In this document: piece by piece, positions 5,038-49,241 of the stretch
How the letters are laid out: every line of letters begins with the position of its first letter
Numbering within the stretch: the first letter of the stretch is position 1
Notes under the pieces: model-generated
The model's input: only the letters and a program-made list of their open reading frames with translations
Databases searched by the model: none
What the model was told of the DNA's origin: nothing
Made by a program: the position numbers and the translations under genes
DNA from: an uncultured bacterium
Lineage (GTDB): Bacteria > Verrucomicrobiota > Kiritimatiellia > CAIKKV01 > CAITUY01
Assembly: GCA_903895695.1 (NCBI GenBank)
Contig: CAITUY010000085.1
Coordinates: 25,052 to 89,051, forward strand
Length of the DNA: 64,000 nucleotides
Direction of reading: 5' to 3'

Positions 5038-5154
5038 AGGTCGTAATTGTCTTTCGGCGGACAAGGGTAGGCGTTTTCGGGGCAGGGGTCAACCACGCGA
5101 GGGGACACCACGCGAGGGGAACAGTAGACAGTGAGCAGTGAATGGTTAACAGTC

Positions 5155-6720: not shown

Positions 6721-7136
6721 GGGCGGAGTTCCTCGGTGGCATCGGCCATCAGCAGCGCGTGGGCTACGGCAAAGTGGTGCGTGTGCGAGAGGCTGATGAG
6801 AACGCGGGTCACGCCGCGCGAGCGGGCCAGTTCGCTGCCCTGGGTCCCGAGCCGCACCGATGGGGCGCCCGTTTCGGGATTGCGCACAACCTCGATATCG
6901 AGCCAGCCGATCGACGGACCGATCCCCGTGCCAAATGCCTTGGAAACGGCCTCCTTCACGGCGAACCGGCCGGCGTAGTAGAGCCAGGGCGAGGCTTTAC
7001 TTTCGCAGTATTCCTGTTCGGCCGGCAGGAACACGCGCTCGCGAAAGCGCGCCCCCCATTTTTCCAGCAGAAGGCGCAGGCGCTCGTTTTCCACCAGGTC
7101 GACGCCCGTCCCGACCACGTTGCCGGAAGGCGTCAC
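6717..7136 (-). CDS. acpS: Holo-[acyl-carrier-protein] synthase (4'-phosphopantetheinyl transferase)
   Basis: GVDLVENERL...FAVKEAVSKAFGTG...ISLSHTHHFAVAHALL; ~139 aa; 4-nt overlaps with nnr and pdxJ. Confidence 0.85.
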   Translation of the reverse strand: MTPSGNVVGTGVDLVENERLRLLLEKWGARFRERVFLPAEQEYCESKASPWLYYAGRFAVKEAVSKAFGTGIGPSIGWLDIEVVRNPETGAPSVRLGTQGSELARSRGVTRVLISLSHTHHFAVAHALLMADATEELRP

Positions 7137-20089: not shown

Positions 20090-20926
20090 CTAGGTCCGAA
20101 TCCACAATTCGGGGCGTGACTCCAGGACTTTTAGGAAGGCGTCGATCACGGCGGGGGGGTGCTGAAACCCCCTGGTTTTCTCCAATTCGGCCAGAATCGT
20201 CGCCCGGGGAAGTTTCGTGCGGTAGGGCCGGTCCGAATTCATGGCGTCGAACATGTCGGCAACGGCAATGATGGACGCCTCGATCGGTATCTGCGACCCC
20301 TTGAGCCCTACGCCGTAGCCGGCGCCATCGTACCGTTCATGATGCAGAACCGCCGCCCGGACCTCATCGCGAAGGAAATCGAGAGACGAGAGTATGGTCG
20401 CCGTGCGGGCGGGGTGTTTCTTGAGGATTTCCCATTCCTCGCTCGTCAGCGGCCCGTTCTTATGCAAAATGGCGTCCGGTGTTTCGATCTTCCCCAGGTC
20501 GTGGAGAGCCGCCGCGCGGGACACAACGTTGACGCTTGTCGAACTCAGTCCCAGCATCTTCGCCAGTTCGACGGAAAGGCGCCTGACCTGCTCCGAGTGG
20601 CCGCGGGTATAGGGGTCCTTCGCTTCCACCGCCTCGACAAGCGCGGTCAGCATCCCGACGTGCGAATCCCGCAACGCTGCTTCCGACTTGGAAAGACGCG
20701 ATAGCGTCCGCGCCTGTTGCACCCACAGGTAGACGAGCAGGACCAGCATGACGGCCAACAGGACCTCGTCGGGGACATAAGCGGCATCCGGTGCGACTGC
20801 CGCGCTGACGAGCCGGTAACAGGTGAACGATGCCGCGAGGACAAGGATGAACCACTGGAACTGGGCCGTGACCAATCTCGTCTTGGGTGGTTGTTCCCGT
20901 GTCGCCATTTCCGCCGATTTTTCCAT
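20090..20926 (-). CDS. HD-GYP domain cyclic-di-GMP phosphodiesterase-like protein with N-terminal TM segments
   Basis: HSEQVRRLSVELAKMLGL...ALHDLGKI...HHERYDGAGYGVGLKG (HD...GYP motifs). Confidence 0.75.
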   Translation of the reverse strand: MEKSAEMATREQPPKTRLVTAQFQWFILVLAASFTCYRLVSAAVAPDAAYVPDEVLLAVMLVLLVYLWVQQARTLSRLSKSEAALRDSHVGMLTALVEAVEAKDPYTRGHSEQVRRLSVELAKMLGLSSTSVNVVSRAAALHDLGKIETPDAILHKNGPLTSEEWEILKKHPARTATILSSLDFLRDEVRAAVLHHERYDGAGYGVGLKGSQIPIEASIIAVADMFDAMNSDRPYRTKLPRATILAELEKTRGFQHPPAVIDAFLKVLESRPELWIRT

Positions 20927-21111
20927 GCCTCGGAACGCCTTCCTGATGCCCGTACACAGAGGGTAGAACGGCGGGATTTGGGAAGCAAGGCTGAACCGAA
21001 CCCGTGCCTTGGCTGCAGCGGAAAACGGCATAAATGGCGTATGGCGCAGTTGACAACGGCGGGACACAGCCATACCATTTGTCCTTTGTTGTCCAAACCG
21101 AATGGTGTCAG

Positions 21112-21813
21112 ATGCAGCTTGGCGTAAGAGATGTGGCTCGGATTCTGAATGTGTCCGAGAAGTCGATTTACCGATGGATTCAGCACGGGCAGTTGCCCGC
21201 TTACCGGGTCAACGAACAGTATCGGTTCAACCGATCGGAGCTCCTGGAGTGGGCCAATGCGCGCAAGATCAACGTCTCGGCCGAGATCTTCAAGGAGCCG
21301 GACACCACCACCGAGATGATGCCGGACCTGGCCGATGCGATCGAGGCCGGCGGCATTTTCTACCGGCTGGAGGGGCGGGATACCGAGTCGGCGCTCAAGG
21401 CGGTCGTGGGCGTGATGCACCTGCCCCAAGACGTCGACCGCGAGTTCCTCCTGCGCGTGCTGATGGCCCGCGAGTCCATGGCCTCGACCGGCATCGGCGA
21501 TGGCATAGCCATTCCACACGTCCGCAACCCGATCGTGCTGGCCGTCCACCAACCGACCATCTGTCTCTGTTTTCTGGAGCATCCCGTCGAATTCGGCGCG
21601 CTCGACGGCCAGCCCGTGAACACACTGTTCACCCTGATCAGTCCGACCGTTCGCGTGCACCTCTACCTCTTGTCTCGACTGGCGTTTGCCCTCCAGCAGC
21701 CGGGCTTCCGGGACGTGGTGCGGCGGCAGGCGCCGCGGGAGGAGATTGTGCCGGCATTACGGGCTGCTGAAGCGGCCGTGGCGCAGGCCAAGGCGGAGAA
21801 GGCGGCCGGGTGA
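21112..21813 (+). CDS. Transcriptional regulator: excisionase/MerR-like HTH fused to PTS EIIA(Ntr)-type phosphorylatable domain
   Basis: N-term MQLGVRDVARILNVSEKSIYRWIQHGQLPAYRVNEQYRFNRSELLEW (HTH_17). C-term LMARESMASTGIGDGIAIPHVRN matches the PtsN/EIIA-Ntr active-site His box. Stop overlaps GTG start of hyfB-1 (GTGA). Confidence 0.7.
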   Translation: MQLGVRDVARILNVSEKSIYRWIQHGQLPAYRVNEQYRFNRSELLEWANARKINVSAEIFKEPDTTTEMMPDLADAIEAGGIFYRLEGRDTESALKAVVGVMHLPQDVDREFLLRVLMARESMASTGIGDGIAIPHVRNPIVLAVHQPTICLCFLEHPVEFGALDGQPVNTLFTLISPTVRVHLYLLSRLAFALQQPGFRDVVRRQAPREEIVPALRAAEAAVAQAKAEKAAG

Positions 21814-23810
21814 GCGGCCTGCTGGTCAGCCTGATTCTGCTTCTAACCGCGTCGGCCCTGCCGCTGGCGGCGTGGCGGCGCCCGGCCCTGGCCTCGCGGC
21901 TTGGTTCCTGGGGCGGGGCCGCGGCGTGCGGCGTCGGCCTGGCTAGTTCGATCGCGGCGTTCGCCGGCAGCGTGACAGCCTCGCGCGCCTGGCCCTGGGT
22001 GACCCCGGTCGGCGGCGCGTTCAGCCTGGCGTTGGATCCGTTGAGCGCTTTCTTCCTGATCCCCATGTTCCTTGTCTGTGGACTCGGGGCCGTCTACGGC
22101 CGGGCCTATCTGGCCGGCGATGAAGGCCGTCTGGCGCTTGGTCCCTCCTGGTGTTTCTATAATCTCCTGACCGCCAGCATGATCGTCGTGCTTACCGCCT
22201 CCAACGCGTTGCTTTTCCTGGTGAGTTGGGAGGTGATGACGCTGGCGTCGTTTTTCCTGGTGACGTACGACCACGACCGCGCCGAGAGCCGTCTGGCTGG
22301 CCGTCTCTACCTCATTGCCGCGCATATCGGTACGGCATTTCTTGTCGTTTTCGTGCTGCTGGGCCGGCGTTACACGGGCACGCTGGACATGTCGCAATGG
22401 CCGGCGGCATTTGCCGGGATTCCGGCCGCGCGCCTGGGGCTGCTCTTCGTCTGCCTCGTGATCGGCTTTGGCACCAAAGCGGGCTTCATGCCGCTGCACG
22501 TCTGGCTGCCCGAGGCGCACCCGGCGGCTCCGAGCCATGTCTCGGCCGTGATGTCGGGTGTCATGATCAAGACCGGCATTTACGGGCTGCTGCGGTTCGG
22601 CACGATGCTGGGCACGCCGGCGCTCTGGTGGGGCGGCCTGCTCGTGGCCGTCGGCCTGGCGTCGTGCGTGTTCGGGATTCTGTTCGCCCTCGCGCAGCAG
22701 GATATCAAGCGGCAACTCGCGTATTCGAGCGTCGAGAACATGGGTATCGTTGCCTTGGCGCTCGGCGTCGCGTTGGTCGCCCGGGCACTGCAACTGCCGA
22801 CGGTCGCGCTGCTGGCTCTCGCGGCGGCCCTGCTGCACGTGCTGAACCATGCGGTCTTCAAGAGCCTGCTATTTTTTGGCGCCGGGGCGATTTACCGCGC
22901 CACGCACACCCGTAATCTCGATGCGCTGGGCGGGCTGCTTAAGCGCATGCCGCGGCTCGGGCTGGGCCTGATCGTCGGCGCGGCCGCCATCAGCGCCCTG
23001 CCTCCATTCAACGGGTTCGTGGGCGAATTCCTGCTCTACCGCGCTGCAGTGCTCGGCCTGAACTCCGACGCTGACGCCGGGATGATCCTGCTCGCGGCGA
23101 TCGGGGGCCTGGCCCTCACCGGGGGGCTGGCGGCTGCCTGTTTCACGCGTCTGGTCGGGGTGGCCCTGCTCGGGGAACCGCGCACGCCTGAAGCGGCGGC
23201 CGCCGTAGAGCCGGCCGGCGCCTTTCGGTGGCCGGTCACGATCCTGGCGGCGCTGTGCCTGGCGCTCGGAGTGCTGGGGCCATTTCTGGTTGTCCGCCTG
23301 GCGCCGCTCCTCTCCCTGCTGAGCGGCGATCCGCTGGCGAAGGTGTCGGGGTTGCTGGCCCCGGAAACCGGTCCGCTGACGGCCGTGACGCTCATGGCCT
23401 TGCTTGTCCTCGCGCTTGTGGTCATCGTGGCCTGGGCGCGGCACGGCTTGCTCCGCGGCCGCGACGTGCGCGAGGCCGGTACCTGGGATTGCGGCTATGC
23501 CCGCCCCACGGCCCGCATGCAGTACACGGCCACCTCGTTCGCACAGCCCCTCGTGGGGCTTTTCGTCCGGCTCCTGCGTAGCCGGCGCCGCTACGCCATC
23601 GCGCCTGGCCTGTTTCCCGCTTCCGCCTCGCTGAATGCCGAGACCCGCGACGTGGTGCGGGAACGCGTGTTCACGCCGGTGTTCCAGTTCGTCGACCGGT
23701 GGCTGTCGTTTCTGAAATGGCTCCAGTCTGGCCGTGTTCAGCTCTACATTCTCTACATCGTGATCACCCTGCTGGGGCTCTTGTTCTGGACTCTGAGGGG
23801 GGGCGCATGA
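21810..23810 (+). CDS. hyfB: Hyf/Mbh-type antiporter-like membrane subunit (HyfB/NuoL-like), cluster 1
   Basis: 666 aa polytopic protein; HVWLPEAHPAAPSHVSAVMSGVMIKTGIYG signature of the complex-I antiporter-like family; GTG start. Confidence 0.8.
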   Translation: MSGLLVSLILLLTASALPLAAWRRPALASRLGSWGGAAACGVGLASSIAAFAGSVTASRAWPWVTPVGGAFSLALDPLSAFFLIPMFLVCGLGAVYGRAYLAGDEGRLALGPSWCFYNLLTASMIVVLTASNALLFLVSWEVMTLASFFLVTYDHDRAESRLAGRLYLIAAHIGTAFLVVFVLLGRRYTGTLDMSQWPAAFAGIPAARLGLLFVCLVIGFGTKAGFMPLHVWLPEAHPAAPSHVSAVMSGVMIKTGIYGLLRFGTMLGTPALWWGGLLVAVGLASCVFGILFALAQQDIKRQLAYSSVENMGIVALALGVALVARALQLPTVALLALAAALLHVLNHAVFKSLLFFGAGAIYRATHTRNLDALGGLLKRMPRLGLGLIVGAAAISALPPFNGFVGEFLLYRAAVLGLNSDADAGMILLAAIGGLALTGGLAAACFTRLVGVALLGEPRTPEAAAAVEPAGAFRWPVTILAALCLALGVLGPFLVVRLAPLLSLLSGDPLAKVSGLLAPETGPLTAVTLMALLVLALVVIVAWARHGLLRGRDVREAGTWDCGYARPTARMQYTATSFAQPLVGLFVRLLRSRRRYAIAPGLFPASASLNAETRDVVRERVFTPVFQFVDRWLSFLKWLQSGRVQLYILYIVITLLGLLFWTLRGGA

Positions 23811-24718
23811 ACGGGCGCGGCTTGATCCATTACGCGCTGGCGCTGCTGCTGGCCCCGCTGCTGCTGGGCGTGATCAATCGCGTCAAGGCGGCCTTTGCCG
23901 GGCGCCGGGGCCAGCCGGTGCTGCAGCCCTACTACGACCTCGTCAAGCTGCTGCAGAAGGGCGCTGTCTACAGTCGGACCACCACGTGGGTCTTCCGGGC
24001 GGGCCCGGTCGTGACGCTTGCCGCACTGCTCGCGGCGCTGGCCCTGGTGCCGTTCGCGGGACAGGCCGGCCCGTTGTCGTTCCAGGGCGACGTGATCGTC
24101 TGTGTTTATCTGCTCGGACTGGCGCGCTTCTTCACAGTGCTGGCCGCGCTCGATACGGGGTCGGCCTTCGAGGGGATGGGGGCGAGCCGGGAAGTGCAGT
24201 TCTCGGCGCTGGCCGAGCCGGCATTGCTCGTCGGGCTGGTCGTGCTCGGACGGCAGACGAGCACGGCGTCGCTGGGTCCCATGTTTGCGGCTGTGGGGCC
24301 GGCGCTGTGGATGACCGCCGGTACGACGCTGGCCCTGCTTGCGGTGGCCTTCTTCATCGTGCTGTTGTCCGAGAACTCGCGCGTGCCGTTCGACGATCCC
24401 AATACGCATCTCGAGCTGACGATGATCCACGAGGTCATGGTGCTCGACCACGGCGGGCCGGACTTCGGACTGATTTTGTACGGCTCGGCGCTCAAGCTTT
24501 GGATCTTCAGCGCCTTTGTCGCGGGACTGGTCGTGCCGTACCGCTGCGGCAACGGCTGGGTCGACACGGCGGCGGCCGTCGGCGCGCTGCTCCTGACGGC
24601 GTTGGTGGTCGGCACGGTGGAATCGTGCATGGCGCGGTTGCGTCTGCTGCGCGTGCCGCACTTGCTGATCAGCGCGACCGTGGCGGCCGTGCTGGCATTT
24701 TTGTTGATGACGAGGTGA
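23807..24718 (+). CDS. hyfC: HyfC/HycD (NuoH-like) membrane subunit, cluster 1
   Basis: LQPYYDLVKLLQKG...ENSRVPFDDPNTHLELTMIHEVMVLDHGGP; ATGA overlap with hyfB-1. Confidence 0.8.
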   Translation: MNGRGLIHYALALLLAPLLLGVINRVKAAFAGRRGQPVLQPYYDLVKLLQKGAVYSRTTTWVFRAGPVVTLAALLAALALVPFAGQAGPLSFQGDVIVCVYLLGLARFFTVLAALDTGSAFEGMGASREVQFSALAEPALLVGLVVLGRQTSTASLGPMFAAVGPALWMTAGTTLALLAVAFFIVLLSENSRVPFDDPNTHLELTMIHEVMVLDHGGPDFGLILYGSALKLWIFSAFVAGLVVPYRCGNGWVDTAAAVGALLLTALVVGTVESCMARLRLLRVPHLLISATVAAVLAFLLMTR

Positions 24719-24722
24719 ACCG

Positions 24723-25388
24723 GTGACGTCGTGGCTTGATATTGTGATGGTGCTGCTGTTCCTGACCGACCTGGGCCTGCTCGGGTCGAGCCGGCTGGGC
24801 GTCTACGTGCGCCTGGCGGCCGTGCAGGGCGTGCTCGTGGGGGTGCTGCCCCTGCTGGTGCAGCACACGCTGGCGCTTGAAACCGTCGCCGTTGCCGCGG
24901 GCACGATCGCCGTCAAGAGCGTGTTGTTCCCCTGGCTCATGGCGCGGATCATGCGCGGCTTCGATGACCGTCGCGAACGGCAGCCGTACCTGGGTTACAC
25001 GGTGTCGCTCGTGTTGGGCGTGCTGGCGGTGGGCGCGGCCCTGTGGATCAGTCGGCGCCTGCCCGAGTCCGGGGCCGGTGGCCTGGCGGCCCACGGCTTC
25101 CTGATGCCCGCGGCCTTGTTCTCCATATTCACCGGCCTCATCCTGCTGGTCACGCGGCGCAAGGCCGTGACCCAGGTGCTGGGCTATCTTGTGATGGAAA
25201 ACGGCATCTACGTGGCCGGCATGGTACTGGTGCCGGAGTCGACGTTCCTGGTGGAGTTGGGGGTGCTGCTGGACTTGTTCGTGGGCGTGTTCCTCATGGG
25301 GATCATGATTTTCCACATCCAGCGTGAATTCGATCATATCGATACGGACCAACTGGCGGCCTTGAAGGATTGGGGGGGCGAGCCGTGA
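24723..25388 (+). CDS. hyfE: HyfE-like small membrane subunit, cluster 1
   Basis: 221 aa, ~6 TM; LGYLVMENGIYVAG motif shared with paralog at 32680; GTG start. Confidence 0.7.
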   Translation: MTSWLDIVMVLLFLTDLGLLGSSRLGVYVRLAAVQGVLVGVLPLLVQHTLALETVAVAAGTIAVKSVLFPWLMARIMRGFDDRRERQPYLGYTVSLVLGVLAVGAALWISRRLPESGAGGLAAHGFLMPAALFSIFTGLILLVTRRKAVTQVLGYLVMENGIYVAGMVLVPESTFLVELGVLLDLFVGVFLMGIMIFHIQREFDHIDTDQLAALKDWGGEP

Positions 25389-25404: not shown

Positions 25405-26880
25405 ATGCTGAGAGAACTGGTCATGTTGCCGGCCGGGGCCGGATTGATGGCGTTCTTCGTGCGTTCGCACGGGTGGCGTCGCGGCCTGCTCGTGGCGGCT
25501 GCCGTCGCGCACCTGGGCCTCACCGTCCGGGCGTGGGTCGCGCCGCCGGCCGTCGGCGGCTTCTGGCTGGGCCTGGACCCGCTCGGGCTCCTGTTCCTGA
25601 CCATCGTCAGCGTGCTGTTCATGGCCTGCGCCGTGTATGCCGTCGGCTACCTGGGCCGCGAGGACCACCAGCAGGAAAAGGCCGATCTTGAGGAGGGCCT
25701 GCTGTTCAGCAACCAGCCCGAGGCCGTGTTTACCGGATGCATGCTGCTGTTCCTGTCCATGATGTCGCTCGTGTGCCTGAGCCGGCATCTGGGCCTGCTC
25801 TGGGTGGCGATCGAGGCCACCACGCTCACGAGTGCGCCGCTGATCTACTACCACCGGCATCACCGCTCGCTCGAGGCGGCTTGGAAGTACATGCTGATTT
25901 GTTCGGTCGGCATCGGGTTGGCCTTGCTCGGCAACTTCTTCCTGGCCGTGGCCTTCACGCCCGCGGGCGGGGTGACGCCGGCGCTTGGACTGGACGGTCT
26001 GCTGACTGCCACGGTGGGGACGCGCGGCGTGTGGCTGAAGGTGGCCTTCGTGTTCATCGTCGTGGGCTACGGCACGAAGATGGGCCTGGCACCCATGCAC
26101 ACGTGGCTGCCCGATGCCCACAGCGAGTCGCCGTCCGTGGTTTCGGCCCTGCTGTCGGGGGCGCTGCTGAATTGCGCCTTCCTGGGCATTTTGCGCGTAT
26201 GGCAGGTGCTCGTGCACACGGGTCAGGCCGATTTCGCCCAACCCATCATGATCGGGTTCGGCCTGGCGTCGATGGCGGTCGCCGCTGTCTTCATCCTGGG
26301 TCAACCCGACTATAAGCGCCTGCTCGCCTATTCCAGCGTGGAGCACATGGGTATCCTGGCGCTCGGTGTCGGCCTCGGCGGCGCCGCCGTGTTCGGTAGC
26401 CTGCTGCACGCCGTGAACCACTCGTTGACGAAGTGCATGCTGTTCCTCACAGCCGGCAACATACTGGCCGTATACCGTACCAAGGAGTGCGGCAAGGCGC
26501 GCGGATTGCTGCGCGTGATGCCGGTCACGGGCGTGCTCTGGATCGCGGGCTTCCTGGCCATCACCGGCACGCCGCCGTTCGGCGTGTTCCTGAGCAAATT
26601 CATCGTGCTGAGCGCCGCGTTCAACAGCGGCCATCCGGTCATCGGCGTCGTCGCGCTGGCCCTGCTGGCCGTGATCTTCGTGGGCCTCTGCGTGATCGTG
26701 CTGCGCATGGGGCAGGGCGAACGCAGCGATGCGGTGCCGGAGGCGGTGCGCGAGCCCCTGTGGTCGATGATTCCGCCCGTGCTGCTCGGACTGGCCGTGC
26801 TTGCGCTGGGCCTGTGGTTGCCGAAGCCGCTGGAGACGGTCCTGCAGGCCGCCGCCAGGAGTTTGGGAGGCGGGCTGTAA
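25405..26880 (+). CDS. hyfF: HyfF (NuoN/M-like) antiporter-like membrane subunit, cluster 1
   Basis: HTWLPDAHSESPSVVSALLSGALLNCAFLG; 491 aa. Confidence 0.8.
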   Translation: MLRELVMLPAGAGLMAFFVRSHGWRRGLLVAAAVAHLGLTVRAWVAPPAVGGFWLGLDPLGLLFLTIVSVLFMACAVYAVGYLGREDHQQEKADLEEGLLFSNQPEAVFTGCMLLFLSMMSLVCLSRHLGLLWVAIEATTLTSAPLIYYHRHHRSLEAAWKYMLICSVGIGLALLGNFFLAVAFTPAGGVTPALGLDGLLTATVGTRGVWLKVAFVFIVVGYGTKMGLAPMHTWLPDAHSESPSVVSALLSGALLNCAFLGILRVWQVLVHTGQADFAQPIMIGFGLASMAVAAVFILGQPDYKRLLAYSSVEHMGILALGVGLGGAAVFGSLLHAVNHSLTKCMLFLTAGNILAVYRTKECGKARGLLRVMPVTGVLWIAGFLAITGTPPFGVFLSKFIVLSAAFNSGHPVIGVVALALLAVIFVGLCVIVLRMGQGERSDAVPEAVREPLWSMIPPVLLGLAVLALGLWLPKPLETVLQAAARSLGGGL

Positions 26881-26882: not shown

Positions 26883-28469
26883 ATGAGCACCCCCCGAACT
26901 CTGCGCATGGGCGAAGCCGTTCCCTTGGCCGAGATTCCGCGTCTCGACACCGCTGGATTCCGCGCCCGGGTGACCGACGTGGCCTGGCGTCTGCGCCTTG
27001 TCGCCCTCTTCGGTCGCCCCTCCTACGCCTTGACGGCTTCGGAGGGCAGGCCCTCGTCCTCTTCGGTGGCTGCGGAGGGCCAGTCTGCGGTCGAACCCGG
27101 GGCGCCGGTGACGCTCACTGCGATCTTTGCGGATGACCGCAACGGCCAGATGCAGGCGTTTTCGACGGACGTGGGGGCGTCGTACCCGGCGCTGACGCCC
27201 GACTGCCCCCAGGCCAACGGATTCGAGCGCGAAATCGCCGAGCAGTGGGGTGTGCGGCCTGAAGGGCACCCGTGGCTCAAGCCGCTCCGCTATCACCGTT
27301 CCGCTGTGCCGGGCCGTGACGCGTGGGGCCGCGCCCCAGGGACGGCGATAGAGCCGTCCGTGACCGATTTCTTCCGCGTGGAAGGCGAGGCCGTCCACGA
27401 GGTAGCGGTGGGCCCCGTGCATGCCGGCGTCATTGAGCCCGGCCATTTTCGGTTCCAGTGTTTTGGCGAGACCGTGCTGCACCTCGAGATCGCACTGGGT
27501 TACCAGCATCGCGGCGTGGAGCAGGCGCTGCGCCACGGCGACGCGCGGCGCGTGATGCCTTACATGGAAACGCTGGCCGGCGACACGACCATCGGCCACG
27601 CCACGGCCTATGCCCAGGCCCTCGAGTCCGCCGCCGGCGCCCGGGTGTCCGCGCGGGCCCATGCCCTGCGGGCCGTGGCCTTGGAACTCGAACGCCTGGC
27701 CAACCACACCGGCGATCTCGGCGCGCTGGCGGGCGACGTAGCCTTCCTGCCCACGATGTCCTACTGCGGCCGGATCCGCGGCGATTTTCTGAACATGACG
27801 GCCCTGATCTGCGGCAACCGGTTCGGGCGCGGACTGGTGCGGCCGGGCGGCGTGCGTTGGGATCTCGACCCGGCCCGCAAAGACGAACTGTTGTCGCGCC
27901 TGGCGGCCGCCGAGGCTGACACCAAGAGCGCGGTCGAGCTGATGTTCGACTCGCCGTCGGTGCTGGCCAGGTTCGAGGAAACCGGCACCGTGTCCTTCGA
28001 CGAGTGCGAGTCGCTCGGGCTCGTCGGGCCTGCAGCGCGAGCCTGCGGCGCCGAACGCGACGTGCGACAGGATTTCCCCGGCGGGATGTACCGGTTTCAG
28101 CAGATCCCGGTGGGAACGTGGAGCACCGGCGACGTATTTGGCCGCGCCTTCGTGCGCTGGCTGGAAATCCAGCGTTCCATCGCGTTCATTCGCGAGGTGC
28201 TGCAGACGCTGCCGGAGGGCGACGTGCTGGCGCCCTGCGGCCCGCTGGCGCCGGACAGCCTCGTGGTCTCCCTGGTCGAGGGGTGGCGGGGCGAGGTCGC
28301 CCACGTGCTGATCACCGGGGCGCAAGGACAGCGCGAGTTCTACAAGATTGTGGACCCTTCGTTCCATAACTGGATGGGCCTGGCGATCGCGATGCGAGAC
28401 CAGGCGATCTCCGATTTCCCGATCTGCAACAAGAGCTTCAACCTTTCGTACTGCGGGCACGATTTGTGA
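26883..28469 (+). CDS. Group-4 hydrogenase large-subunit homolog (fused NuoC-NuoD/HycE-like) lacking both NiFe-binding CxxC motifs (Ehr-like), cluster 1
   Basis: NuoC-like N-domain plus NuoD/HycE-like domain (VGPVHAGVIEPGHFRF). At the position of the paralog's N-terminal ERMCGVCSLSHG this protein has METLAGDTTIGHA. C-terminus CNKSFNLSYCGHDL replaces NKSFELCYSCTDR. Confidence 0.75.
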   Translation: MSTPRTLRMGEAVPLAEIPRLDTAGFRARVTDVAWRLRLVALFGRPSYALTASEGRPSSSSVAAEGQSAVEPGAPVTLTAIFADDRNGQMQAFSTDVGASYPALTPDCPQANGFEREIAEQWGVRPEGHPWLKPLRYHRSAVPGRDAWGRAPGTAIEPSVTDFFRVEGEAVHEVAVGPVHAGVIEPGHFRFQCFGETVLHLEIALGYQHRGVEQALRHGDARRVMPYMETLAGDTTIGHATAYAQALESAAGARVSARAHALRAVALELERLANHTGDLGALAGDVAFLPTMSYCGRIRGDFLNMTALICGNRFGRGLVRPGGVRWDLDPARKDELLSRLAAAEADTKSAVELMFDSPSVLARFEETGTVSFDECESLGLVGPAARACGAERDVRQDFPGGMYRFQQIPVGTWSTGDVFGRAFVRWLEIQRSIAFIREVLQTLPEGDVLAPCGPLAPDSLVVSLVEGWRGEVAHVLITGAQGQREFYKIVDPSFHNWMGLAIAMRDQAISDFPICNKSFNLSYCGHDL

Positions 28470-28640: not shown

Positions 28641-28659
28641 TTAGTCATTGGGGCCAGGT

Positions 28660-29433
28660 ATGTTGAGTGTCATCAAAGCGCGGGCGAAGCAGAAGTATCG
28701 CACGAGCCGGTACCCGGCCGAGGCGCCGGTGATGCCGGATCGTTTCCAGGGACTGCCCGAGGTGAAGCCGGACGCCTGCGGCGCGGACTGCCAGGCGGGT
28801 TGCGTGCAGGCGTGTCCCGTGGGCGCCGTCTCGCGCGGGGGGGGCCGGCTGGCCGTCGACCTGGGGCGTTGCCTGTTCTGCGGCGAATGCGAGCGCGCCT
28901 GCCCGCACGGTTGCATTCGGTTTACCCGCGATCACGCGCTGGCGGCCCGATCCCGCGAGGCGTTTGTGCGTGACGGCGGGCCCAAGCCGCTGGCCGCCGC
29001 GCTCGACGGCCGCCTGCGAAAACTGTACGGCCGGTCCCTCAAGCTGCGCCAGGTCAGCGCGGGCGGGTGCAACGCCTGCGAGGCGGACTGCAACGTGCTC
29101 GGCACGCTCGTCTTCGACTTGGGCCGCTTCGGCATCCAGTTCGTCGCGTCGCCGCGGCACGCCGACGGGCTTCTCATTACCGGGCCGGTGACGAAGAACA
29201 TGGAGCTGGCCCTGCGCAAGACTTACGACGCCGTGCCCGAGCCGCGCATCGTCATCGCGGTCGGCGCCTGCGCGATCGCCGGCGGTCCCTACATCGACCA
29301 TGATGAGGTTCGCAATGGCGCCGCGAGCGTGGTGCCGGTCGACCTCTACGTGCCGGGCTGCCCGCCCAATCCCTGGACCATCCTCGACGGCCTCCTGCGC
29401 CTGCTTGGCCGGATCCCAGATCACGCCGGGTGA
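28660..29433 (+). CDS. Fusion of 2x[4Fe-4S] ferredoxin-like domain (HyfH/NuoI-like) and hydrogenase small subunit (HyfI/HycG/NuoB-like), cluster 1
   Basis: N-term CGADCQAGCVQACP (unusual Cx3Cx3Cx3CP) and canonical CLFCGECERACP. C-term NuoB-like with proximal-cluster Cys GGCNACE...VGACAIAGG...VPGCPP. ATG 28660 preferred over TTG 28648. Confidence 0.75.
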   Translation: MLSVIKARAKQKYRTSRYPAEAPVMPDRFQGLPEVKPDACGADCQAGCVQACPVGAVSRGGGRLAVDLGRCLFCGECERACPHGCIRFTRDHALAARSREAFVRDGGPKPLAAALDGRLRKLYGRSLKLRQVSAGGCNACEADCNVLGTLVFDLGRFGIQFVASPRHADGLLITGPVTKNMELALRKTYDAVPEPRIVIAVGACAIAGGPYIDHDEVRNGAASVVPVDLYVPGCPPNPWTILDGLLRLLGRIPDHAG

Positions 29434-29569
29434 TAGTGACGACGGAACTCGGTCTTCCAAGCTGCAGACTCGTGTTTCGGCCTTTTCGAGCCGCGTGCAC
29501 CGGTACGAGAACGTTGTCGCCCCGTCTTGCTCTTCGTCCTAGCTGAGGATCTGGTCATCTGCTGCGTCC

Positions 29570-29598
29570 TTGTAGCTTGCACGTCAGTCGGGTATATA
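29570..29598 (+). promoter_or_regulatory. Candidate sigma70-like promoter for the second hyf-like cluster in a 230-nt lower-GC, G/T-rich spacer
   Basis: TTGTAG (29570-29575) - 17 nt - TATATA (29593-29598), ~65 nt upstream of ATG 29665; the only AT-rich patch between the two clusters. Confidence 0.35.
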
Positions 29599-29664
29599 TG
29601 GTTTGTTTGACTTTGCTTGGTTGTGTCTGTCGGGTGTTGAGTTGGCTGCGGTTTGGCAGGACTG

Positions 29665-31728
29665 ATGACGACGATGGCGACAAGCGTCCGCGCAAGCGGC
29701 GATGGAGATAAACTGACCGCGCATCCCCTGGTCGACAAGGGTGCGGGACCGGTTGTGCGGTGTGCGGTCTGGTTGGGCCACTGGCTTACGCTGGCCGGTG
29801 CGTTGGCCGGCGCCGCGGTGGCCCTGCGCGTCCTGGGCGGTTCCGCGCCCGTTCACGTGGCGCTTCCGAAACTCTTCCCATTCGCTGAGATGTCTCTCCA
29901 CGTGGACGGGCTTTCCGCGTTCTTTCTCCTGGTCGTTTGCGTGGTCGCCGTCGCGGCCTCGGTCTATGGCCCTTCCTACCTCGGCGCGCACGCCAAGGCG
30001 CCGCTGGTCCAAACCCTGGCCTTCATGGTGTTTGTCCCCTGCATGGCCCTGGTATGCTGCGCCGGCGACGCGCTCACGTTTCTGCTGGCCTGGGAGGGCA
30101 TGACGCTCGCGAGCTACGTGCTCGTCGTGAGCGATACGGCGGACGCGGAAAAGACGCGCGCGGGACTGCTTTACCTGATCATGGCGCATGCGGGCACCGC
30201 GGCGCTGCTCGCCGTGTTCCTCACGCTCACCGTGCACGCGCAGGCGTTCGACTTCCCCGCGTTGCGCGACGCGGCGGGCCGGTTGGACGGCTCCACGCGC
30301 ACGGTGCTGTTCATGCTGGCGCTGCTCGGTTTCGGGGCCAAGGCCGGCGTCGTGCCGCTGCACATCTGGCTCCCGGCGGCGCACCCGGCCGCGCCCAGCC
30401 ACGTGTCGGCCCTGATGTCGGGTGCGATGCTCAAGGTCGCCATCTACGGCATCTTCCGTTTCGGGTTTGCGCTGCTGGCCTCGACGACCGGCCCGCTGCC
30501 CCCGTCGTGGGGCTGGACCGTCCTATTCCTGGGCACCGTTTCCGCCGTGTTCGGTGTCTTGCTAGCCCTCCAGCAACATGACCTGAAGCGTCTACTCGCG
30601 TATCACAGCGTGGAGAACATCGGCATCATTCTTATCGGCGCGGGGCTGGCTATGTTGCTGGGCGGCAGACCCGGCACGGAGCGGCTGGCCACGCTGGCCT
30701 TGGCGGCCTCGCTCCTGCACACCTTGAATCACGCGGCGTTCAAGGGCTTGTTGTTCCTGGGCGCCGGCAGCGTCGTCAGCCGCACGTTCACCCGCAACAT
30801 GGAGGAGTTCGGCGGCCTGGCCCGCCGCATGCCCTGGACGGCCTGGCTGTTCCTGCTCGGGTCGGTCGCCATATCGGCGCTGCCGCCGCTAAACGGGTTT
30901 GTCAGCGAGTGGATGACGTTCCAGGCCCTGGTACTGGGCGGCGCCAGAATGGGCGGCGCGTCGGGCCTGCTCGCCGGAATTGCGGCCTCGATGCTCGCGC
31001 TGACCGGCGGCCTGGCGGCCGCCTGCTTTGCGAAGGCCTTCGGCGTTACCTTCCTCGGCCGGCCGCGCTCGGCGCACGCCGAGCACGCGACTGAATCGCC
31101 GGCGCCGATGATCGCCGGCATGCTCCTGCTGGCGGGCGCCTGCGTGGCACTCGGCCTGGTGCCGGGGTATGCCATGCGCCTGCTGGACCGGCCCACCGCT
31201 GAAGTTATGGGCGGCCTGAGCGCCAGCGCGGTCGTCGCTGCCCGGGGGCCCCTCGTCCTTTCCGCCGGCGGCGGGCCGGCGGGCCTGGAGGCGACCTCGA
31301 TCTCGGTGACCCTGGCCGCATCGGTGTTCCTGTTGATCGCCGTGGCCGTGTGGTTTGTGCGGAGTTGGCCACGGAAGGCGCCGCGCCGGCTTGCGCCGAC
31401 CTGGACGTGCGGGATGACCCCCACCAGCCGCTTCGACTATACGGCGACTGCGTTCGCCAAGCCGTTGCGGCTCATCTTTGCCGCCGTTTACCGGCCGCAC
31501 CGGGCGATCGCGCGGGAGCCTGGTCCTTCGCCCTACGTGCCCCGGCGGTTGGTCTACTCGGGCGAGGTTGTCGATCTCACGGAGACGGTCTTCTACGCCC
31601 GGTTCAAACACGCGGTGACCGCCGTGTCCCAAGCCATCCGCGCCCGGAGCACCGGGCGGATCCACGGGTACATCGCCTACGTGCTGGCCACGCTGGTGAT
31701 TGTGCTACTTCTCTTCGGGAAAGGGTGA
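29665..31728 (+). CDS. hyfB: HyfB/NuoL-like antiporter-like subunit, cluster 2
   Basis: Paralog of 21810-23810 (HIWLPAAHPAAPSHVSALMSGAMLKVAIYG); first ATG at 29665. Confidence 0.8.
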   Translation: MTTMATSVRASGDGDKLTAHPLVDKGAGPVVRCAVWLGHWLTLAGALAGAAVALRVLGGSAPVHVALPKLFPFAEMSLHVDGLSAFFLLVVCVVAVAASVYGPSYLGAHAKAPLVQTLAFMVFVPCMALVCCAGDALTFLLAWEGMTLASYVLVVSDTADAEKTRAGLLYLIMAHAGTAALLAVFLTLTVHAQAFDFPALRDAAGRLDGSTRTVLFMLALLGFGAKAGVVPLHIWLPAAHPAAPSHVSALMSGAMLKVAIYGIFRFGFALLASTTGPLPPSWGWTVLFLGTVSAVFGVLLALQQHDLKRLLAYHSVENIGIILIGAGLAMLLGGRPGTERLATLALAASLLHTLNHAAFKGLLFLGAGSVVSRTFTRNMEEFGGLARRMPWTAWLFLLGSVAISALPPLNGFVSEWMTFQALVLGGARMGGASGLLAGIAASMLALTGGLAAACFAKAFGVTFLGRPRSAHAEHATESPAPMIAGMLLLAGACVALGLVPGYAMRLLDRPTAEVMGGLSASAVVAARGPLVLSAGGGPAGLEATSISVTLAASVFLLIAVAVWFVRSWPRKAPRRLAPTWTCGMTPTSRFDYTATAFAKPLRLIFAAVYRPHRAIAREPGPSPYVPRRLVYSGEVVDLTETVFYARFKHAVTAVSQAIRARSTGRIHGYIAYVLATLVIVLLLFGKG

Positions 31729-31732
31729 GTCC

Positions 31733-32683
31733 ATGGCGAGTATCGAACACATCGGGGCCGCCTGCGCGCAGACCGGGCTTCTGGTTGTGCTCGGACCCCT
31801 TGTGACCGGGTTCATCCAGAAGATCAAGGCGCGCCTTCAGTGCCGGCAGGGGGCGAGCGTCTGGCAGCCGTACCAGGACCTCGCGAAGTTGCTGCGCAAG
31901 GGAACCGTGCAAAGCGACACGGCCAGCCCGTTCTTCCAGGTCGTGCCGGTGCTCGTGCTGGCCGCCACCGTGACGGCCGCCGCCATGCTGCCCGTACTGC
32001 GCTCCTCGGTGGGCTCCTCAGCCCTGCCGTTCGGCGACGCCATTCTGCTCGTGGCCCTGCTGGCCCTGGCCCGTTTTCTCCTGGCGATCGGGGCGCTGGA
32101 TGCCGGGGGCGCGTTCGGCGGGATGGGGGCCTCCCGCGAAATGACCGTCGGCCTCTTGGTCGAGCCGGCCTTGATGCTCGTCGTTTTTTCGGTGGCGATC
32201 GTGGGCGGGACCACCGAGTTGGGCGACCTGGCCACGCGCCGGCATACGCTCGCTGCCATGGCGTGGCAGGCGCCCGACCTGCTCGCATTCTTCGCGATGC
32301 TGGTCCTGATACCGGCGGAAACCGGGCGGATCCCCGTGGATAACCCGGACACCCACCTCGAGCTCACGATGCTGCACGAAGGCATGCTCCTCGAGCACTC
32401 GGGGCCTGGCCTGGCCTGCATCGCCCTGGCCACGCACACCAAGCAGATCGTCATCCTCAGCCTGACCGTGGCGCTCTTCTGCCCGTACGGCATGGCACAG
32501 GACATCACGCCGGAGGCCTTGGGTCTGGCCCTGGCGGCCTTCGTCGCCAAACTTTTTGTGTTCGTGGTGTTTCTGGGCGTGATCGAGTCTTCCTACGCCA
32601 AGATGCGTTTCTTCAGGGTTCCCCAATTCCTGGCGTTGGGGTTGCTGTGCGCGTTCCTGTCCCTGGCGTTGAGGATCCTATGA
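31733..32683 (+). CDS. hyfC: HyfC/HycD (NuoH-like) subunit, cluster 2
   Basis: WQPYQDLAKLLRKG...ETGRIPVDNPDTHLELTMLHEGMLLEHSGP. Confidence 0.8.
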   Translation: MASIEHIGAACAQTGLLVVLGPLVTGFIQKIKARLQCRQGASVWQPYQDLAKLLRKGTVQSDTASPFFQVVPVLVLAATVTAAAMLPVLRSSVGSSALPFGDAILLVALLALARFLLAIGALDAGGAFGGMGASREMTVGLLVEPALMLVVFSVAIVGGTTELGDLATRRHTLAAMAWQAPDLLAFFAMLVLIPAETGRIPVDNPDTHLELTMLHEGMLLEHSGPGLACIALATHTKQIVILSLTVALFCPYGMAQDITPEALGLALAAFVAKLFVFVVFLGVIESSYAKMRFFRVPQFLALGLLCAFLSLALRIL

Positions 32684-33336
32684 GCATCGAGCTGGCCACC
32701 CGCCTGATCAATGACCTGGGAGCGCTGCTCCTGGTCACCATGATGCTTATCCTGGCGTCCGGGCAGTTGTTCCGCGCTATCTTCGCCGTCGCCGCGCAGG
32801 CCGTGTTCCTGGGAATCGCCGGCGTGATCCTGGGGATCGTCACCGGGAATCGCGACCTGTGGATTATTGCGGGCATCACGATCGTCGTGAAAGCCGTCCT
32901 GCTGCCCTGGCTGTTGATCCGGGTCGTCAAGCGGGTCCAGATCCAGCGCGAGATCGAGCCGGCCATCCCGATTTCCATCACGCTCATACTCGGCGCGGCC
33001 ATCGTGGTGCTCGCCTTCCACCTCAGCGCCACGCTGGGCCCGGTCCGGCAGGCGATCACCGGCAACGCGCTGCCCGTGGGCGTGGCGCTGACGTTGCTCG
33101 GCGTCCTGGTGATGGCCTCCCGGAAGAAGGCGCTGACCCAAATGGTCGGCCTGTTCGCCTCCGAAAACGGCATCTTCTTCACCGCCATGGCGATCAGCCA
33201 GGGCATGCCGTTCATCATTGAGATCGGTGTCATCCTCGACGTTGTCCTCGGTGCGCTCGTGATGGGAATTATGATCCTGCGGGTCCGTTCCGACGTGGAT
33301 ACGGATATCGCCGATCTTGAAAGTCTGAAGGGCTGA
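32680..33336 (+). CDS. hyfE: HyfE-like small membrane subunit, cluster 2
   Basis: Paralog of 24723-25388; ATGA overlap with hyfC-2. Confidence 0.7.
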   Translation: MSIELATRLINDLGALLLVTMMLILASGQLFRAIFAVAAQAVFLGIAGVILGIVTGNRDLWIIAGITIVVKAVLLPWLLIRVVKRVQIQREIEPAIPISITLILGAAIVVLAFHLSATLGPVRQAITGNALPVGVALTLLGVLVMASRKKALTQMVGLFASENGIFFTAMAISQGMPFIIEIGVILDVVLGALVMGIMILRVRSDVDTDIADLESLKG

Positions 33337-34808
33337 TGACCTCGACGCTTCCATGGGTTCTGCCGCTGGTGCCCGTCATCTCCGGGCTGTGTATGCTGCT
33401 CTTCCGCGACCGGCGGGTGCTCGCGGCGCTCGACATGGCCAGTTCGGGGGTAATCCTGGCGCTCGGGCTGGTGCTGGCGGGTGAGGTCGCCGCCGCCGGT
33501 CCTATCAGTGCTCTGGGCGCCATGCGTGCGGATGAAGTCACGGTGATCTTCCTGCTGCTGATCGGGTTTCTCGCCCTGGCGGTATCGATCTGCACGGTCG
33601 GCTGGATGCGGCAGTCCCTGGCGCGCTCGGAAATGAAGGCGGATCGGCTGCACTATTACTACGCGCTGGTGCAGGGCTTCATCGCCACGATGCTGGTGAC
33701 GGTACTGTCGGACAATCTCGGGATCCTGTGGATCGCCATGGAAGGCACCACCATCACGTCCGCGGTCCTGGTGGGCTTCCAGGGCAACAAGCACAGCCTT
33801 GAAGCGGCGTGGAAGTATATCATTGTGACCACGATCGGGATTTCGTTCGGCCTTTTCGGTACGGTGCTCATCTACGGGGCGGCCGCGCACGCGCAGGGCG
33901 GCGTTTTTGCCGGGGCCATGAACTGGTCGAGCATCTCGGCCATTTCAGGCAAGCTCGATCCCGGCATCGTGCGCATGGGGTTCATCTTTGTGCTCGTGGG
34001 CTACGGGACGAAGGCCGGTCTGGCCCCCGTTCATATGTGGCTGCCGGATGCGCACAGCCAGGCGCCCACGCCGGTCTCGGCGCTTCTGTCCGGCGCGCTC
34101 ATCAAGTGTGCGCTGTTTGGCATCATCCGGTTCCACACGATTGCGCGCGGCGCCTGCGGCCCGGAGTTCAGCGGGAACCTGCTGCTCTGGTTCGGCGTCA
34201 TCTCGGTGGTGGTGGCGACGCCGTTCATCATCGTCCAGCATGACTTGAAACGGCTGCTTGGCTATCACAGCGTCGAGCACGTCGGGATCGTCGTGCTGGG
34301 CCTGGGCTTCGGCGGCCCCCTCGGGACCTACGGGGCCCTGCTGCACACGATCAACCACGGGGTGACCAAGGCGTTGGCGTTCCTGATCGCGGGCGATGCG
34401 ATTCATCGCTACGACAGCCGCGACATGCGCGTGATCAAGGGCTTCCTGGGCGTCGCGCCGTGGGCGGGCACGCTGCTGTTCATGGGGGCGTTCTCCCTCG
34501 CCGGCACGCCGCCGTTCTCCATCTTCATCAGTGAACTGCTCATCGTTCGTGCGGGGCTCGCCTCCAGCCACTACTGGGCCGTGGGCATCTTTCTCGTCAT
34601 GGTGGTGGTCATCTTTGCGGGCCTGATCCACCACGTCGGGCAGATGGTCCTGGGCATCGCGGCAGAACCCGTGAGCCGCGAGAAGGAGTCCCGCCTGGGG
34701 CTGCTGGGGCTGCTTTTGCTGGCGGCGGTGATCGTGCTGCTGGGAGTGTGCATGCCCGCCGGGTTCGATCGGCTGCTCGTGCGGGCCACGGAGATCATCC
34801 ATGGATGA
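33336..34808 (+). CDS. hyfF: HyfF (NuoN/M-like) subunit, cluster 2
   Basis: HMWLPDAHSQAPTPVSALLSGALIKCALFG; ATGA overlap with hyfE-2. Confidence 0.8.
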   Translation: MTSTLPWVLPLVPVISGLCMLLFRDRRVLAALDMASSGVILALGLVLAGEVAAAGPISALGAMRADEVTVIFLLLIGFLALAVSICTVGWMRQSLARSEMKADRLHYYYALVQGFIATMLVTVLSDNLGILWIAMEGTTITSAVLVGFQGNKHSLEAAWKYIIVTTIGISFGLFGTVLIYGAAAHAQGGVFAGAMNWSSISAISGKLDPGIVRMGFIFVLVGYGTKAGLAPVHMWLPDAHSQAPTPVSALLSGALIKCALFGIIRFHTIARGACGPEFSGNLLLWFGVISVVVATPFIIVQHDLKRLLGYHSVEHVGIVVLGLGFGGPLGTYGALLHTINHGVTKALAFLIAGDAIHRYDSRDMRVIKGFLGVAPWAGTLLFMGAFSLAGTPPFSIFISELLIVRAGLASSHYWAVGIFLVMVVVIFAGLIHHVGQMVLGIAAEPVSREKESRLGLLGLLLLAAVIVLLGVCMPAGFDRLLVRATEIIHG

Positions 34809-36426: not shown

Positions 36427-36446
36427 GAACACCGTAGGAACCCGGC

Positions 36447-37256
36447 ATGATAAGGGCCATTCTGAGGAACTTGAAGACGGGCGTGGTGACGCAACGCGCC
36501 CCGCTGCCGCCCCCGGCCCGTTTCCGGGGCACGCCGAGCGTCAACCCCGGCGTTCCCTTCGATTCCCTGCCCGGGCCCTCGGTCTGCCCGAGCGGCGCCA
36601 TCACCGGCGGCGCGGGCACGGATGGATACGCGATCGACATTGCCCGCTGCGTCTTCTGCGGACGCTGCGCCCTGGCGTCGCCCGCCAATGCCATTGAGCT
36701 GGGCCGCGAAGTCGAACTGTCGGCGCGCCGTCGCGATCGGCTCGTGGTCCGTGTCGAGCGCGGCGCCGACGGACGGACGGTGATCCCGGCCGCCCCCGCC
36801 GCCCTCGAACCCGTGGCCAACCGAATCCGGCGCCTGCTGGGCCGCTCGCTGCACCTGCGCCACGTGGATTCCGGTTCCTGCAATGCCTGCGACTGGGAGC
36901 TCACCGCACTGTTGAACCCTGTCTACGACATACGGCGGCTTGGTATCGACTTCGTGGCCTCGCCCCGGCATGCCGATGGGATCGTGGTCACCGGTCCGGT
37001 GACCCGCAACCTGGAGACAGCCGTGCGGCGGACCCTGGAAGCCGTTCCCGAGCCGCGCCTGGTCATCGCGATCGGCGCCTGCGCCTCATCGGGCGGCATC
37101 GTCGGGCGCAGCTATGCCAGCGCCGGCGGCGTGGATGCTATTCTGCCGGTGGACGTCTACGTGCCCGGTTGCCCGCCGCGTCCCGATGCGATCATTTTCG
37201 GGATCCTTCTCGCCATTGGCCGGCTCGGCGAGCGCCAACCGGCCGGCCCGCGTTAA
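36447..37256 (+). CDS. Ferredoxin-like::hydrogenase small subunit (HycG/NuoB-like) fusion, cluster 2; Fd domain reduced to one predicted [4Fe-4S] site
   Basis: Motif 1 reduced to a single Cys-Pro (SVCPSG); motif 2 CVFCGRCALASP (Cys4 changed to Ser). Small subunit HLRHVDSGSCNACDWE...IGACASSGG...VPGCPP. Confidence 0.75.
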   Translation: MIRAILRNLKTGVVTQRAPLPPPARFRGTPSVNPGVPFDSLPGPSVCPSGAITGGAGTDGYAIDIARCVFCGRCALASPANAIELGREVELSARRRDRLVVRVERGADGRTVIPAAPAALEPVANRIRRLLGRSLHLRHVDSGSCNACDWELTALLNPVYDIRRLGIDFVASPRHADGIVVTGPVTRNLETAVRRTLEAVPEPRLVIAIGACASSGGIVGRSYASAGGVDAILPVDVYVPGCPPRPDAIIFGILLAIGRLGERQPAGPR

Positions 37257-40963: not shown

Positions 40964-40964
40964 G

Positions 40965-49231: not shown

Positions 49232-49241
49232 GGAGGCGGGG

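Follow-up and report, generated by a model that had tools for sequence, protein, structure and literature searches.

A helix-turn-helix protein with a PtsN-like EIIA domain is co-inherited with an Ehr gene cluster and is its candidate autoregulator

A 64,000-nucleotide stretch of contig CAITUY010000085.1 from an uncultured bacterium of the Kiritimatiellia (assembly GCA_903895695.1; this whole stretch is called the window here, and all positions refer to it) contains a gene for a 233-amino-acid protein (21112..21813, plus strand) which joins an N-terminal DNA-binding domain to a PtsN-like EIIA domain of the phosphotransferase system (PTS) and stands at the head of a cluster of genes for an Ehr (energy-converting-hydrogenase-related) membrane complex, which resembles complex I. 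The assignment was made by domain profiles, homologue alignment and a structure model, and it is practically certain that the gene is a real fusion of these two domains located in an operon. The regulator and the cluster behave as a single inherited cassette, which is widespread (more than 100 genomes from over a dozen phyla), is no peculiarity of this genome and appears to have gone undescribed so far. We consider it fairly probable that the protein is a one-component regulator dedicated to one subfamily of the Ehr complexes lacking the Ni-Fe site and inherited together with it, that it regulates its own synthesis, probably as a repressor, and that its EIIA domain receives a signal of the regulatory PTS.

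Domain structure and active site

The helix-turn-helix (HTH) profile HTH_17 (PF12728) matched residues 3-51 (nt 21118-21264, plus strand) with 58.4 bits (cut-off 27, E = 8.8e-16), and PTS_EIIA_2 (PF00359) matched residues 81-216 (nt 21352-21759, plus strand), which follow a linker, with 81.1 bits (cut-off 27, E = 1e-22) over positions 7-141 of the 144 in the profile. These were the only kinds of Pfam match in the 233 residues, and no PRD or EIIB-like domain was detected by Pfam. The winged HTH is of the BldC/excisionase type: the excisionase-type model TIGR01764 of NCBIfam gave 45.1 bits with a cut-off of 28.8, and the profile of the MerR HTH (PF00376) reached 20.7 bits with a cut-off of 28.2. 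The PtsN equivalogs of NCBIfam scored below their cut-offs (TIGR01419, 59.3 vs 138.7 bits; NF008145, 52 vs 221 bits) and the FruA equivalogs gave sub-threshold matches only.

The His box STGIGDGIAIPHVRN, in which His136 is encoded by codon 21517-21519, could be aligned position by position to the box around His73 in PtsN of E. coli (1A6J), and Arg120 and His183 aligned with its Arg57 and His120. The preliminary description of this DNA had read the gene as an HTH fused to an EIIA(Ntr)/PtsN-like domain with a phosphorylatable His box, and both elements are confirmed by the profile searches and by this alignment with EIIA-2 proteins. In a set of 146 sequences (the query and 145 representatives of 50%-identity clusters), Arg120, His136 and His183 were kept in 137, 136 and 134, respectively, and the site was invariant in the most distant aligned members of the family. 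This retention of the Arg-His-His site across the family argues for phosphorylation.

The nearest solved sequences were those of four PtsN/EIIA(Ntr) structures (E about 1e-12). The AlphaFold model of the regulator had a mean pLDDT of 86.9, and its best structural matches in Foldseek were PtsN 3URR, 2A0J, 1A6J and 4GQX, with target-normalised template modelling scores of 0.78-0.80 for the best chains; the search was run with the full-length model and its matches were dominated by the EIIA domain. The HTH alone gave weak matches only among the PDB sequences (RacA, E = 0.08; BldC, E = 1.4).

Extent of the gene and coupling to the hyfB-like gene

The full open reading frame (ORF) spans 21034-21813 on the plus strand. 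ATG 21112 is its true start since all aligned homologues (15 in one set, 68 in another) open with MQLxV(R)DVA. A longer version from ATG 21034 was ruled out; the homologues begin at MQL, and the promoter and operator would lie inside the gene. The span 21112-21825 given previously was thus right at the start and ran 12 nt too far at the end, the stop TGA being located at 21811-21813. Proteins of the family carry the database names 'PTS sugar transporter subunit IIA' and 'nitrogen regulatory IIA component', which hide their DNA-binding function.

The stop codon of the regulator (TGA 21811-21813) overlaps the start codon of the hyfB-like gene (GTG 21810-21812) in the sequence GTGA. This GTG is the sole in-frame start codon ahead of the conserved HyfB N-terminus, and homologous HyfB proteins align from residue 1-4. 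A Shine-Dalgarno-like GGAGAAGG, read from the sequence, is present in the 3' end of the regulator gene (21795-21802, plus strand), 7 nt before the GTG. The start codon overlapped the regulator stop (NTGA) in 25 other loci and directly followed it in 11 more. The regulator is the first gene of the operon, its stop overlapping or abutting the start of the first structural gene. The translational coupling to hyfB-1 through GTGA that had been proposed therefore stands, as no other start is available between the GTG and the conserved HyfB N-terminus.

The linked Ehr cluster

The hyfB-like gene (21810-23810, plus strand) encodes an antiporter-type subunit of 666 amino acids (Proton_antipo_M, E = 1.2e-51), to which the model of hydrogenase 4 subunit B, NF005086, gave 585.5 bits with a cut-off of 667. 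On the same strand, it is followed by a NuoH/HyfC-like gene (23807-24718), which overlaps it in ATGA, by a HyfE-like gene (24723-25388) and a HyfF-like gene (25405-26880), by the gene of a fused NuoC/D-like large subunit without Ni-Fe cysteines (26883-28469) and by that of a ferredoxin-NuoB-like small subunit (28648-29433). The Pfam content of this cluster 1 comprises Proton_antipo_M twice, NADHdh, Oxidored_q6 and Complex1_49kDa.

The large subunit has ETLAGDTTIGH and a C-terminal NLSYCGHDL instead of the motifs RxCGxCxxxH and CxxCxxR. Cluster 1 is of the Ehr type because its large subunit lacks the Ni-Fe cysteines, which agrees with the Ehr-like nature first ascribed to it; with no catalytic Ni-Fe cysteines in this subunit, it does not code for an E. 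coli-type hydrogenase 4 (Hyf). These motifs in place of the cysteine motifs recurred in 67 related loci, i.e. in all those of L002-L085 in which the large subunit lay inside the fetched DNA. Both are near invariant across phyla (NLSYCGHDL in 52 of 64 loci). Such near invariance suggests that the motifs form another conserved site (Asp/Thr/His/Cys) and are not the product of simple decay. The solved chain nearest to the cluster 1 large subunit is E. coli HycE (7Z0S_E).

In many cassettes (L004, L006-L008, L030, L032, L043, L044, L081 and others), an additional antiporter-like gene (Proton_antipo_M) comes after the regulator and ahead of the HyfB-like gene, and the distance from the regulator to the start of the HyfC-like gene is then about 4 kb instead of 2 kb.

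In the window, the regulator is followed on the same strand by two six-gene clusters, both ordered B-C-E-F-G-I. The second hyf-like cluster (29653-37256, plus strand) encodes a true [NiFe] hydrogenase of group 4: all four cysteines are retained in its large subunit (34801-36426), in RMCGVCSLSH and in ELCYSCTDR, with which the protein ends without a C-terminal extension. This cluster is considered to be outside the cassette because the tandem arrangement of Ehr and NiFe clusters was found in only one of 74 other loci (L074). The 219-nt gap between the clusters (29434-29652) is T/G-rich, and no TGTCC repeat and no promoter-like or terminator-like site was found in it. Transcription may read through from cluster 1 into the hydrogenase cluster.

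Distribution of the family and linkage with the Ehr genes

The word-indexed protein search returned more than 7000 matches, the best 120 of which all consisted of HTH_17 and EIIA_2. When the 50%-identity representatives were searched exhaustively, 424 proteins had E <= 1e-30; nearly all of the best 150 were full-length. In a scan of one genome per species, at least 593 relatives were detected, and the best 80 were 59-79% identical to the window protein. These 80 came from Verrucomicrobiota, Kiritimatiellia, Lentisphaeria and Planctomycetota (including the cultured Fontivita pretiosa B-254), from Binatia, Methylomirabilota, Myxococcota, Desulfobacterales, Krumholzibacteriia and Eisenbacteria, and from metagenome-assembled genomes (MAGs) of Elusimicrobia, Fibrobacteria, Anaerolinea, Treponema and Bryobacteraceae. 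Scanning metagenomes with five distant members as the starting set yielded loci down to about 25% identity as well as stand-alone EIIA genes.

Linkage was assessed by tblastn with the cluster 1 proteins of the window in loci that had 1 kb or more of DNA downstream, and it was scored when the regulator was followed on the same strand by the antiporter-like gene of the cluster. Among the regulators with at least 40% identity to that of the window, 107 of 111 were linked, so the gene-neighbourhood comparison suggested at the outset showed a near-universal association. By identity class, the linked loci numbered 12 of 12 (70% or more), 68 of 69 (60-70%), 16 of 18 (50-60%) and 11 of 12 (40-50%), and 2 of 5 below 40%. 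None of the 14 stand-alone EIIA controls was linked; two nominal exceptions proved to be fusions cut by the contig end. The upstream flanks were unrelated between the loci.

Promoter and candidate operator

A sigma-70-like promoter precedes the regulator gene on the plus strand, with TTGACA (21050-21055) and TACCAT (21073-21078) separated by a 17-nt spacer and matching the consensus at 10 of 12 positions. It was the sole match in 20850-21250, where 0.2 matches were expected from shuffled sequences. One base after the -10 hexamer lies the candidate operator TGTCC-TTTGT-TGTCC (21080-21094, plus strand), a direct repeat with a period of 10 bp and the sole exact TGTCC-N5-TGTCC in the window. GGACA, an inverted copy of the half-site, is located in the promoter spacer (21062-21066, plus strand), 13 nt upstream of the first TGTCC. 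The two target regions that had been put forward for the regulator fared differently: 20.93-21.11 kb contains this repeat, and nothing comparable was found in 29.43-29.66 kb.

The 160 nt upstream of the regulator ATG were searched in 82 non-redundant loci aligned at the ATG. TGTCC-N5-TGTCC was present exactly in 38 of them and with no more than one mismatch in 54. The remaining 2.63 Mb of locus sequence contained 5 exact and 76 one-mismatch copies on both strands together, which corresponds to 0.0003 and 0.0046 per 160 nt, respectively; the enrichment upstream of the regulator thus exceeds 1000-fold. The position of the repeat peaks sharply at -49 from the ATG, and its extended consensus is ATGTCCAAAGATGTCCAAA. 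Of the 54 loci, 34 have a TTGACN hexamer ending 21-24 nt before the repeat, i.e. in the register of the window, so that the repeat directly follows the -10 element, and in 7 the hexamer abuts the repeat, which then fills the -35/-10 spacer. Altogether, a fixed register to a -35-like hexamer was found in 41 of 54 loci. In 14 of 54, GGACA precedes the repeat by 11-13 nt.

In distant subfamilies (40-55% identity; L128, L143, L103/L104), TGTCC is replaced by other direct repeats, such as GACACCGTCAGG twice in L128 and TTGAC-N5-TTGAC in L143. These replacements would fit a changed operator specificity.

Proposed mechanism and signal input

We propose that the HTH domains occupy the two TGTCC repeats in head-to-tail order, in the manner of BldC on its 9-bp repeats, and that the bound protein would most likely block RNA polymerase because the repeat extends from approximately -5 to +10 or, in other lineages, takes up the -35/-10 spacer. 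In this way, the regulator would repress its own operon, which includes both the regulator and the Ehr genes. HPr or NPr of a regulatory PTS without transporters would phosphorylate the EIIA domain on His136, and the phosphorylation state might alter the oligomerisation of the protein or its affinity to DNA. The expression of the Ehr complex could thereby be tied to phosphoenolpyruvate (PEP)/pyruvate and to the carbon-nitrogen state of the cell. The chances that the signal is PTS phosphorylation of His136 appear about even.

The PTS partners were searched for with HPr of E. coli and B. subtilis and NPr of E. coli as tblastn queries and by running the hidden Markov model of HPr on all stop-to-stop ORFs of the window and of loci L001-L085; the sole match was in L029. 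Pfam scans of about 50 genes of the window detected no PTS protein. In a single locus, L029 from a Planctomycetia MAG, a gene of the HPr family (PF00381) is located directly upstream of the regulator. Its product keeps His15, and Arg17 and Ser46 are replaced by Leu and Asn, respectively. In this locus (2606-6910), genes for a sensor histidine kinase and a sigma-54-dependent response regulator of the NtrC type precede the HPr-family gene, which is followed by the regulator. The TGTCC repeat of L029 is degenerate, with two mismatches. The relatives of the L029 HPr are encoded in clusters of the order rpoN-hpf-hprK-(rapZ)-EIIA(Man)-HPr-EI, and a regulatory EI/HPr chain without PTS transporters was described for Planctomycetes and Chlamydiales (PMC2405797). 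The L029 HPr, the clusters of its relatives and this published chain lend indirect support to the existence of a phosphoryl donor.

Alternatively, the EIIA domain may be no PTS acceptor and may serve as a protein-protein or ligand-sensing module which reads the state of the Ehr complex itself. It could dock on the cytoplasmic face of the complex, so that the regulator would be sequestered at the membrane as in the pairs Mlc/EIICB(Glc) and MtlR/transporter, or it could modulate the complex post-translationally, as PtsN does with its targets TrkA and KdpD. This possibility, which we consider unlikely though worth weighing, draws on the constraint on the protein: the regulator (median identity to the window copy 62%) is conserved at least as well as every structural subunit (45-63%), and the 59-79% identity across phyla would be an uncommon degree of conservation for a simple repressor and points to several surfaces under constraint. 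Moreover, the divergence of G and I, the peripheral subunits, correlates with that of the regulator (rho 0.43-0.45), 164 of 165 loci contain no linked PTS genes, and the EIIA_2 fold is also that of the regulatory cytoplasmic domain of SLC4 transporters. Membrane sequestration of MtlR is reported in PMC13421365. Against a domain that only senses the complex stands the full Arg-His-His site found in more than 90% of the representatives, for which phosphorylation is the simplest explanation.

Sensing of the Ehr complex and PTS control can coexist and are not mutually exclusive. In the extreme case, the HTH-EIIA protein would be the universal co-inherited switch of the Ehr subfamily with the invariant motifs GDTTxGH and SYCGHDL and would link the regulatory PTS to this complex-I-like ion pump, acting both as a promoter repressor and by phosphorylation-dependent docking of the PtsN-like domain on the complex (sequestration at the membrane or feedback), which we regard as quite unlikely. 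Since K+ and ion homeostasis systems have PtsN as their classical regulator, such a dual switch, if real, would point to a role of Ehr in cation homeostasis or energy state and would represent a new class of PTS output.

Recognition of the repeat by the regulator

In a pairwise BLASTP alignment, Lys17, Arg21, Trp22 and Arg38 of the regulator correspond to Lys26, Arg30, Trp31 and Arg47 of BldC, and they are invariant in the homologues with at least 64% identity. The residue numbers of the BldC query match those given in PMC5859096. According to that study, Lys26 and Arg30 of BldC contact bases and Trp31 kinks the DNA, and BldC, which resembles Xis, binds as head-to-tail multimers to 9-bp direct repeats (AATTCGGAC twice) containing GGAC. 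Read on the other strand, the candidate operator consists of CTTTGGACAT twice, i.e. of an AT-rich tract followed by GGAC with a period of 10 bp. The repeat was present in 58 of 98 loci whose regulators have Lys17, Arg21 and Trp22 and in 1 of 42 loci with other residues (Fisher test 1.7e-11, uncorrected for phylogeny). From these sequence comparisons, the regulator is likely a DNA-binding autoregulator acting at the TGTCC repeat; whether it represses rather than activates from there is evenly balanced.

It could also be imagined that the repeat is bound by an unlinked factor, for example by a response regulator of the OmpR/PhoB type, and that the HTH-EIIA protein is an accessory or assembly factor or acts as a regulator elsewhere. 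OmpR/PhoB-type regulators recognise direct repeats of 10-11 bp, and the PhoB and ArcA boxes typically consist of TGTCA-like pentamers repeated directly with a period of 11 bp; in addition, about one third of the close homologues have no recognisable repeat, and the histidine kinase and sigma-54-dependent response regulator of L029 precede the regulator gene. We nevertheless consider this highly unlikely, as a factor of the same specificity would be needed in more than 12 phyla and the motif follows the recognition-helix residues in the way just described. Moreover, the motif lies after or inside a complete -35/-10 pair and does not replace the -35 element as activator boxes do, and the residues by which BldC contacts DNA are kept in the HTH.

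The last alternative, that the linkage is fortuitous or local and the protein an ordinary PtsN paralogue or a chance-fused excisionase of a mobile element, is practically excluded by the neighbourhood statistics (107 of 111 loci linked, with unrelated flanks and in many phyla): HTH_17 and TIGR01764 are indeed excisionase-type models and the window contains an integrase island, but this lies about 35 kb away, no integrase adjoins the regulator gene, and all homologues with at least 64% identity, as well as nearly all of the best 150 of the 424 representatives, have the full-length fusion.

Several observations weigh against autoregulation at the repeat and control by the PTS. No genes for EI, HPr/NPr or HprK were detected in the 64-kb window, the L029 gene was the only HPr-like neighbour in about 165 loci, and His136 is missing in about 7% of the 146 sequences. 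The promoter is known as a consensus match only, and about one third of the loci with 60% identity or more, like nearly all of those below 50%, have either no repeat or one with more than one mismatch. The regulator does not reach the cut-off of the BldC family (NF033787, 17.7 vs 77 bits), and its phmmer matches to the BldC structures 6AMK and 6AMA are weak (E = 1.4-1.7). Covariation and cis-linkage are the sole grounds for binding, the covariation test being confounded by shared ancestry, and proteins of the BldC type can activate as well as repress.

Relation to known systems

The regulator shares with PtsN the EIIA_2 fold and the site that is formed by Arg57, His73 and His120 in the E. coli protein, and PtsN is likewise a regulatory, non-transport EIIA acting on ion-transport systems. 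PtsN is, however, a stand-alone protein of about 150-160 amino acids which is encoded beside rpoN and acts by protein-protein contact, whereas the protein described here has an N-terminal DNA-binding domain and is encoded together with Ehr genes. No rpoN or hpf, the context of PtsN proper, was found near the regulator. It is therefore not PtsN proper, as it scores below the equivalog cut-offs, is fused and has no rpoN context. The resemblance to BldC and Xis lies in the small winged HTH of the MerR superfamily without a coiled-coil and in the head-to-tail repeat of an AT-rich tract and GGAC, here a candidate site. BldC differs in being a stand-alone domain of 68 amino acids without a sensor, in the 9-bp period of its repeats (10 here) and in controlling development genes, and the regulator is no member of the BldC family by score. 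Nor is it of the classical MerR type, as the spacer has 17 nt, compared with 19-20 bp in classical MerR promoters, and the repeat is direct, not palindromic.

Transcription factors with an EIIA(Mtl/Fru)-type domain whose activity is set by PTS phosphorylation are represented by MtlR, LicR, ManR and LevR of Firmicutes and by the FrvR type of E. coli. These regulators comprise 600-900 amino acids with PRD and EIIB-like domains and control sugar-PTS operons. In contrast, the protein described here has 233 amino acids and no PRD or EIIB, and its target is a respiratory-type membrane complex. The combination of a BldC/Xis-type HTH with an EIIA(Ntr)-like domain would thus be a new minimal architecture for transcription control by the PTS, and the outputs of the regulatory PTS would be extended to a respiratory-type membrane complex in bacteria of the Planctomycetes-Verrucomicrobia-Chlamydiae (PVC) group, Binatia, Myxococcota and others.

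The nearest characterised relatives of the linked cluster are Hyf and FHL of E. coli. The regulator of the E. coli hyf operon is HyfR, a sigma-54 activator and no HTH-EIIA protein. In its subunit set (two or three Mrp-antiporter-like subunits, NuoH-, NuoC/D- and NuoB-like subunits) and in the missing Ni-Fe cysteines, cluster 1 matches the Ehr complexes, the widespread relatives of complex I and of the energy-converting hydrogenases. The classification of Ehr is credited to Marreiros et al. 2013 (as cited in PMC6349859 and 10.1101/765248). The same two papers state that the substrate and physiological role of Ehr are unknown, and neither mentions an Ehr regulator. In openly licensed PMC and bioRxiv full text, no paper tying EIIA or PtsN to Ehr was found. 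A co-inherited regulator with a predicted operator and a PtsN-type receiver would provide the first testable handle on the function of Ehr: the derepressing signal, the phosphorylation of His136 by HPr or NPr as a trigger and the conditions under which the complex is synthesised are all accessible to experiment.

Other genes of the window

Divergently from the regulator, a gene of the HD-GYP type (HD_5) with predicted N-terminal membrane segments is encoded at 20090-21073 on the minus strand. It was rejected as a part of the system, as it was found beside the regulator in no other distinct locus; in tblastn, the sole other locus containing it was L001, a contig identical to the window. An Rfam scan revealed no riboswitch or other RNA family near the regulator locus.

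Otherwise, the window has housekeeping genes, a pair of GH38 mannosidase genes and, behind a tRNA-Pro gene, an integrase island. The tandem genes of the GH38 alpha-mannosidases (1027 and 1013 amino acids) occupy 37883-44006 on the minus strand. They are followed by an AbiEii-type nucleotidyltransferase gene, the second in the window (44380-44985), a RhuM-family gene (46272-47312) and a large ORF without a Pfam match (47417-49981, minus strand). The MutS ORF (50824-53652, plus strand) encodes 942 amino acids from its first start codon. The MutS homologues have about 833 amino acids and cover only 89% of the ORF, and the true start is probably located about 100 codons downstream. By its MutS relatives, the organism falls near Kiritimatiellia, Verrucomicrobiota and Lentisphaerae. 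The tRNA-Pro(CGG) gene (56659-56735) is followed by a probable integrated island reaching to 63246, which contains genes for a caspase-like peptidase C14 (57601-58395), an AbiEii toxin with a DUF6088 partner (60066-61654) and a tyrosine integrase (61759-63246).

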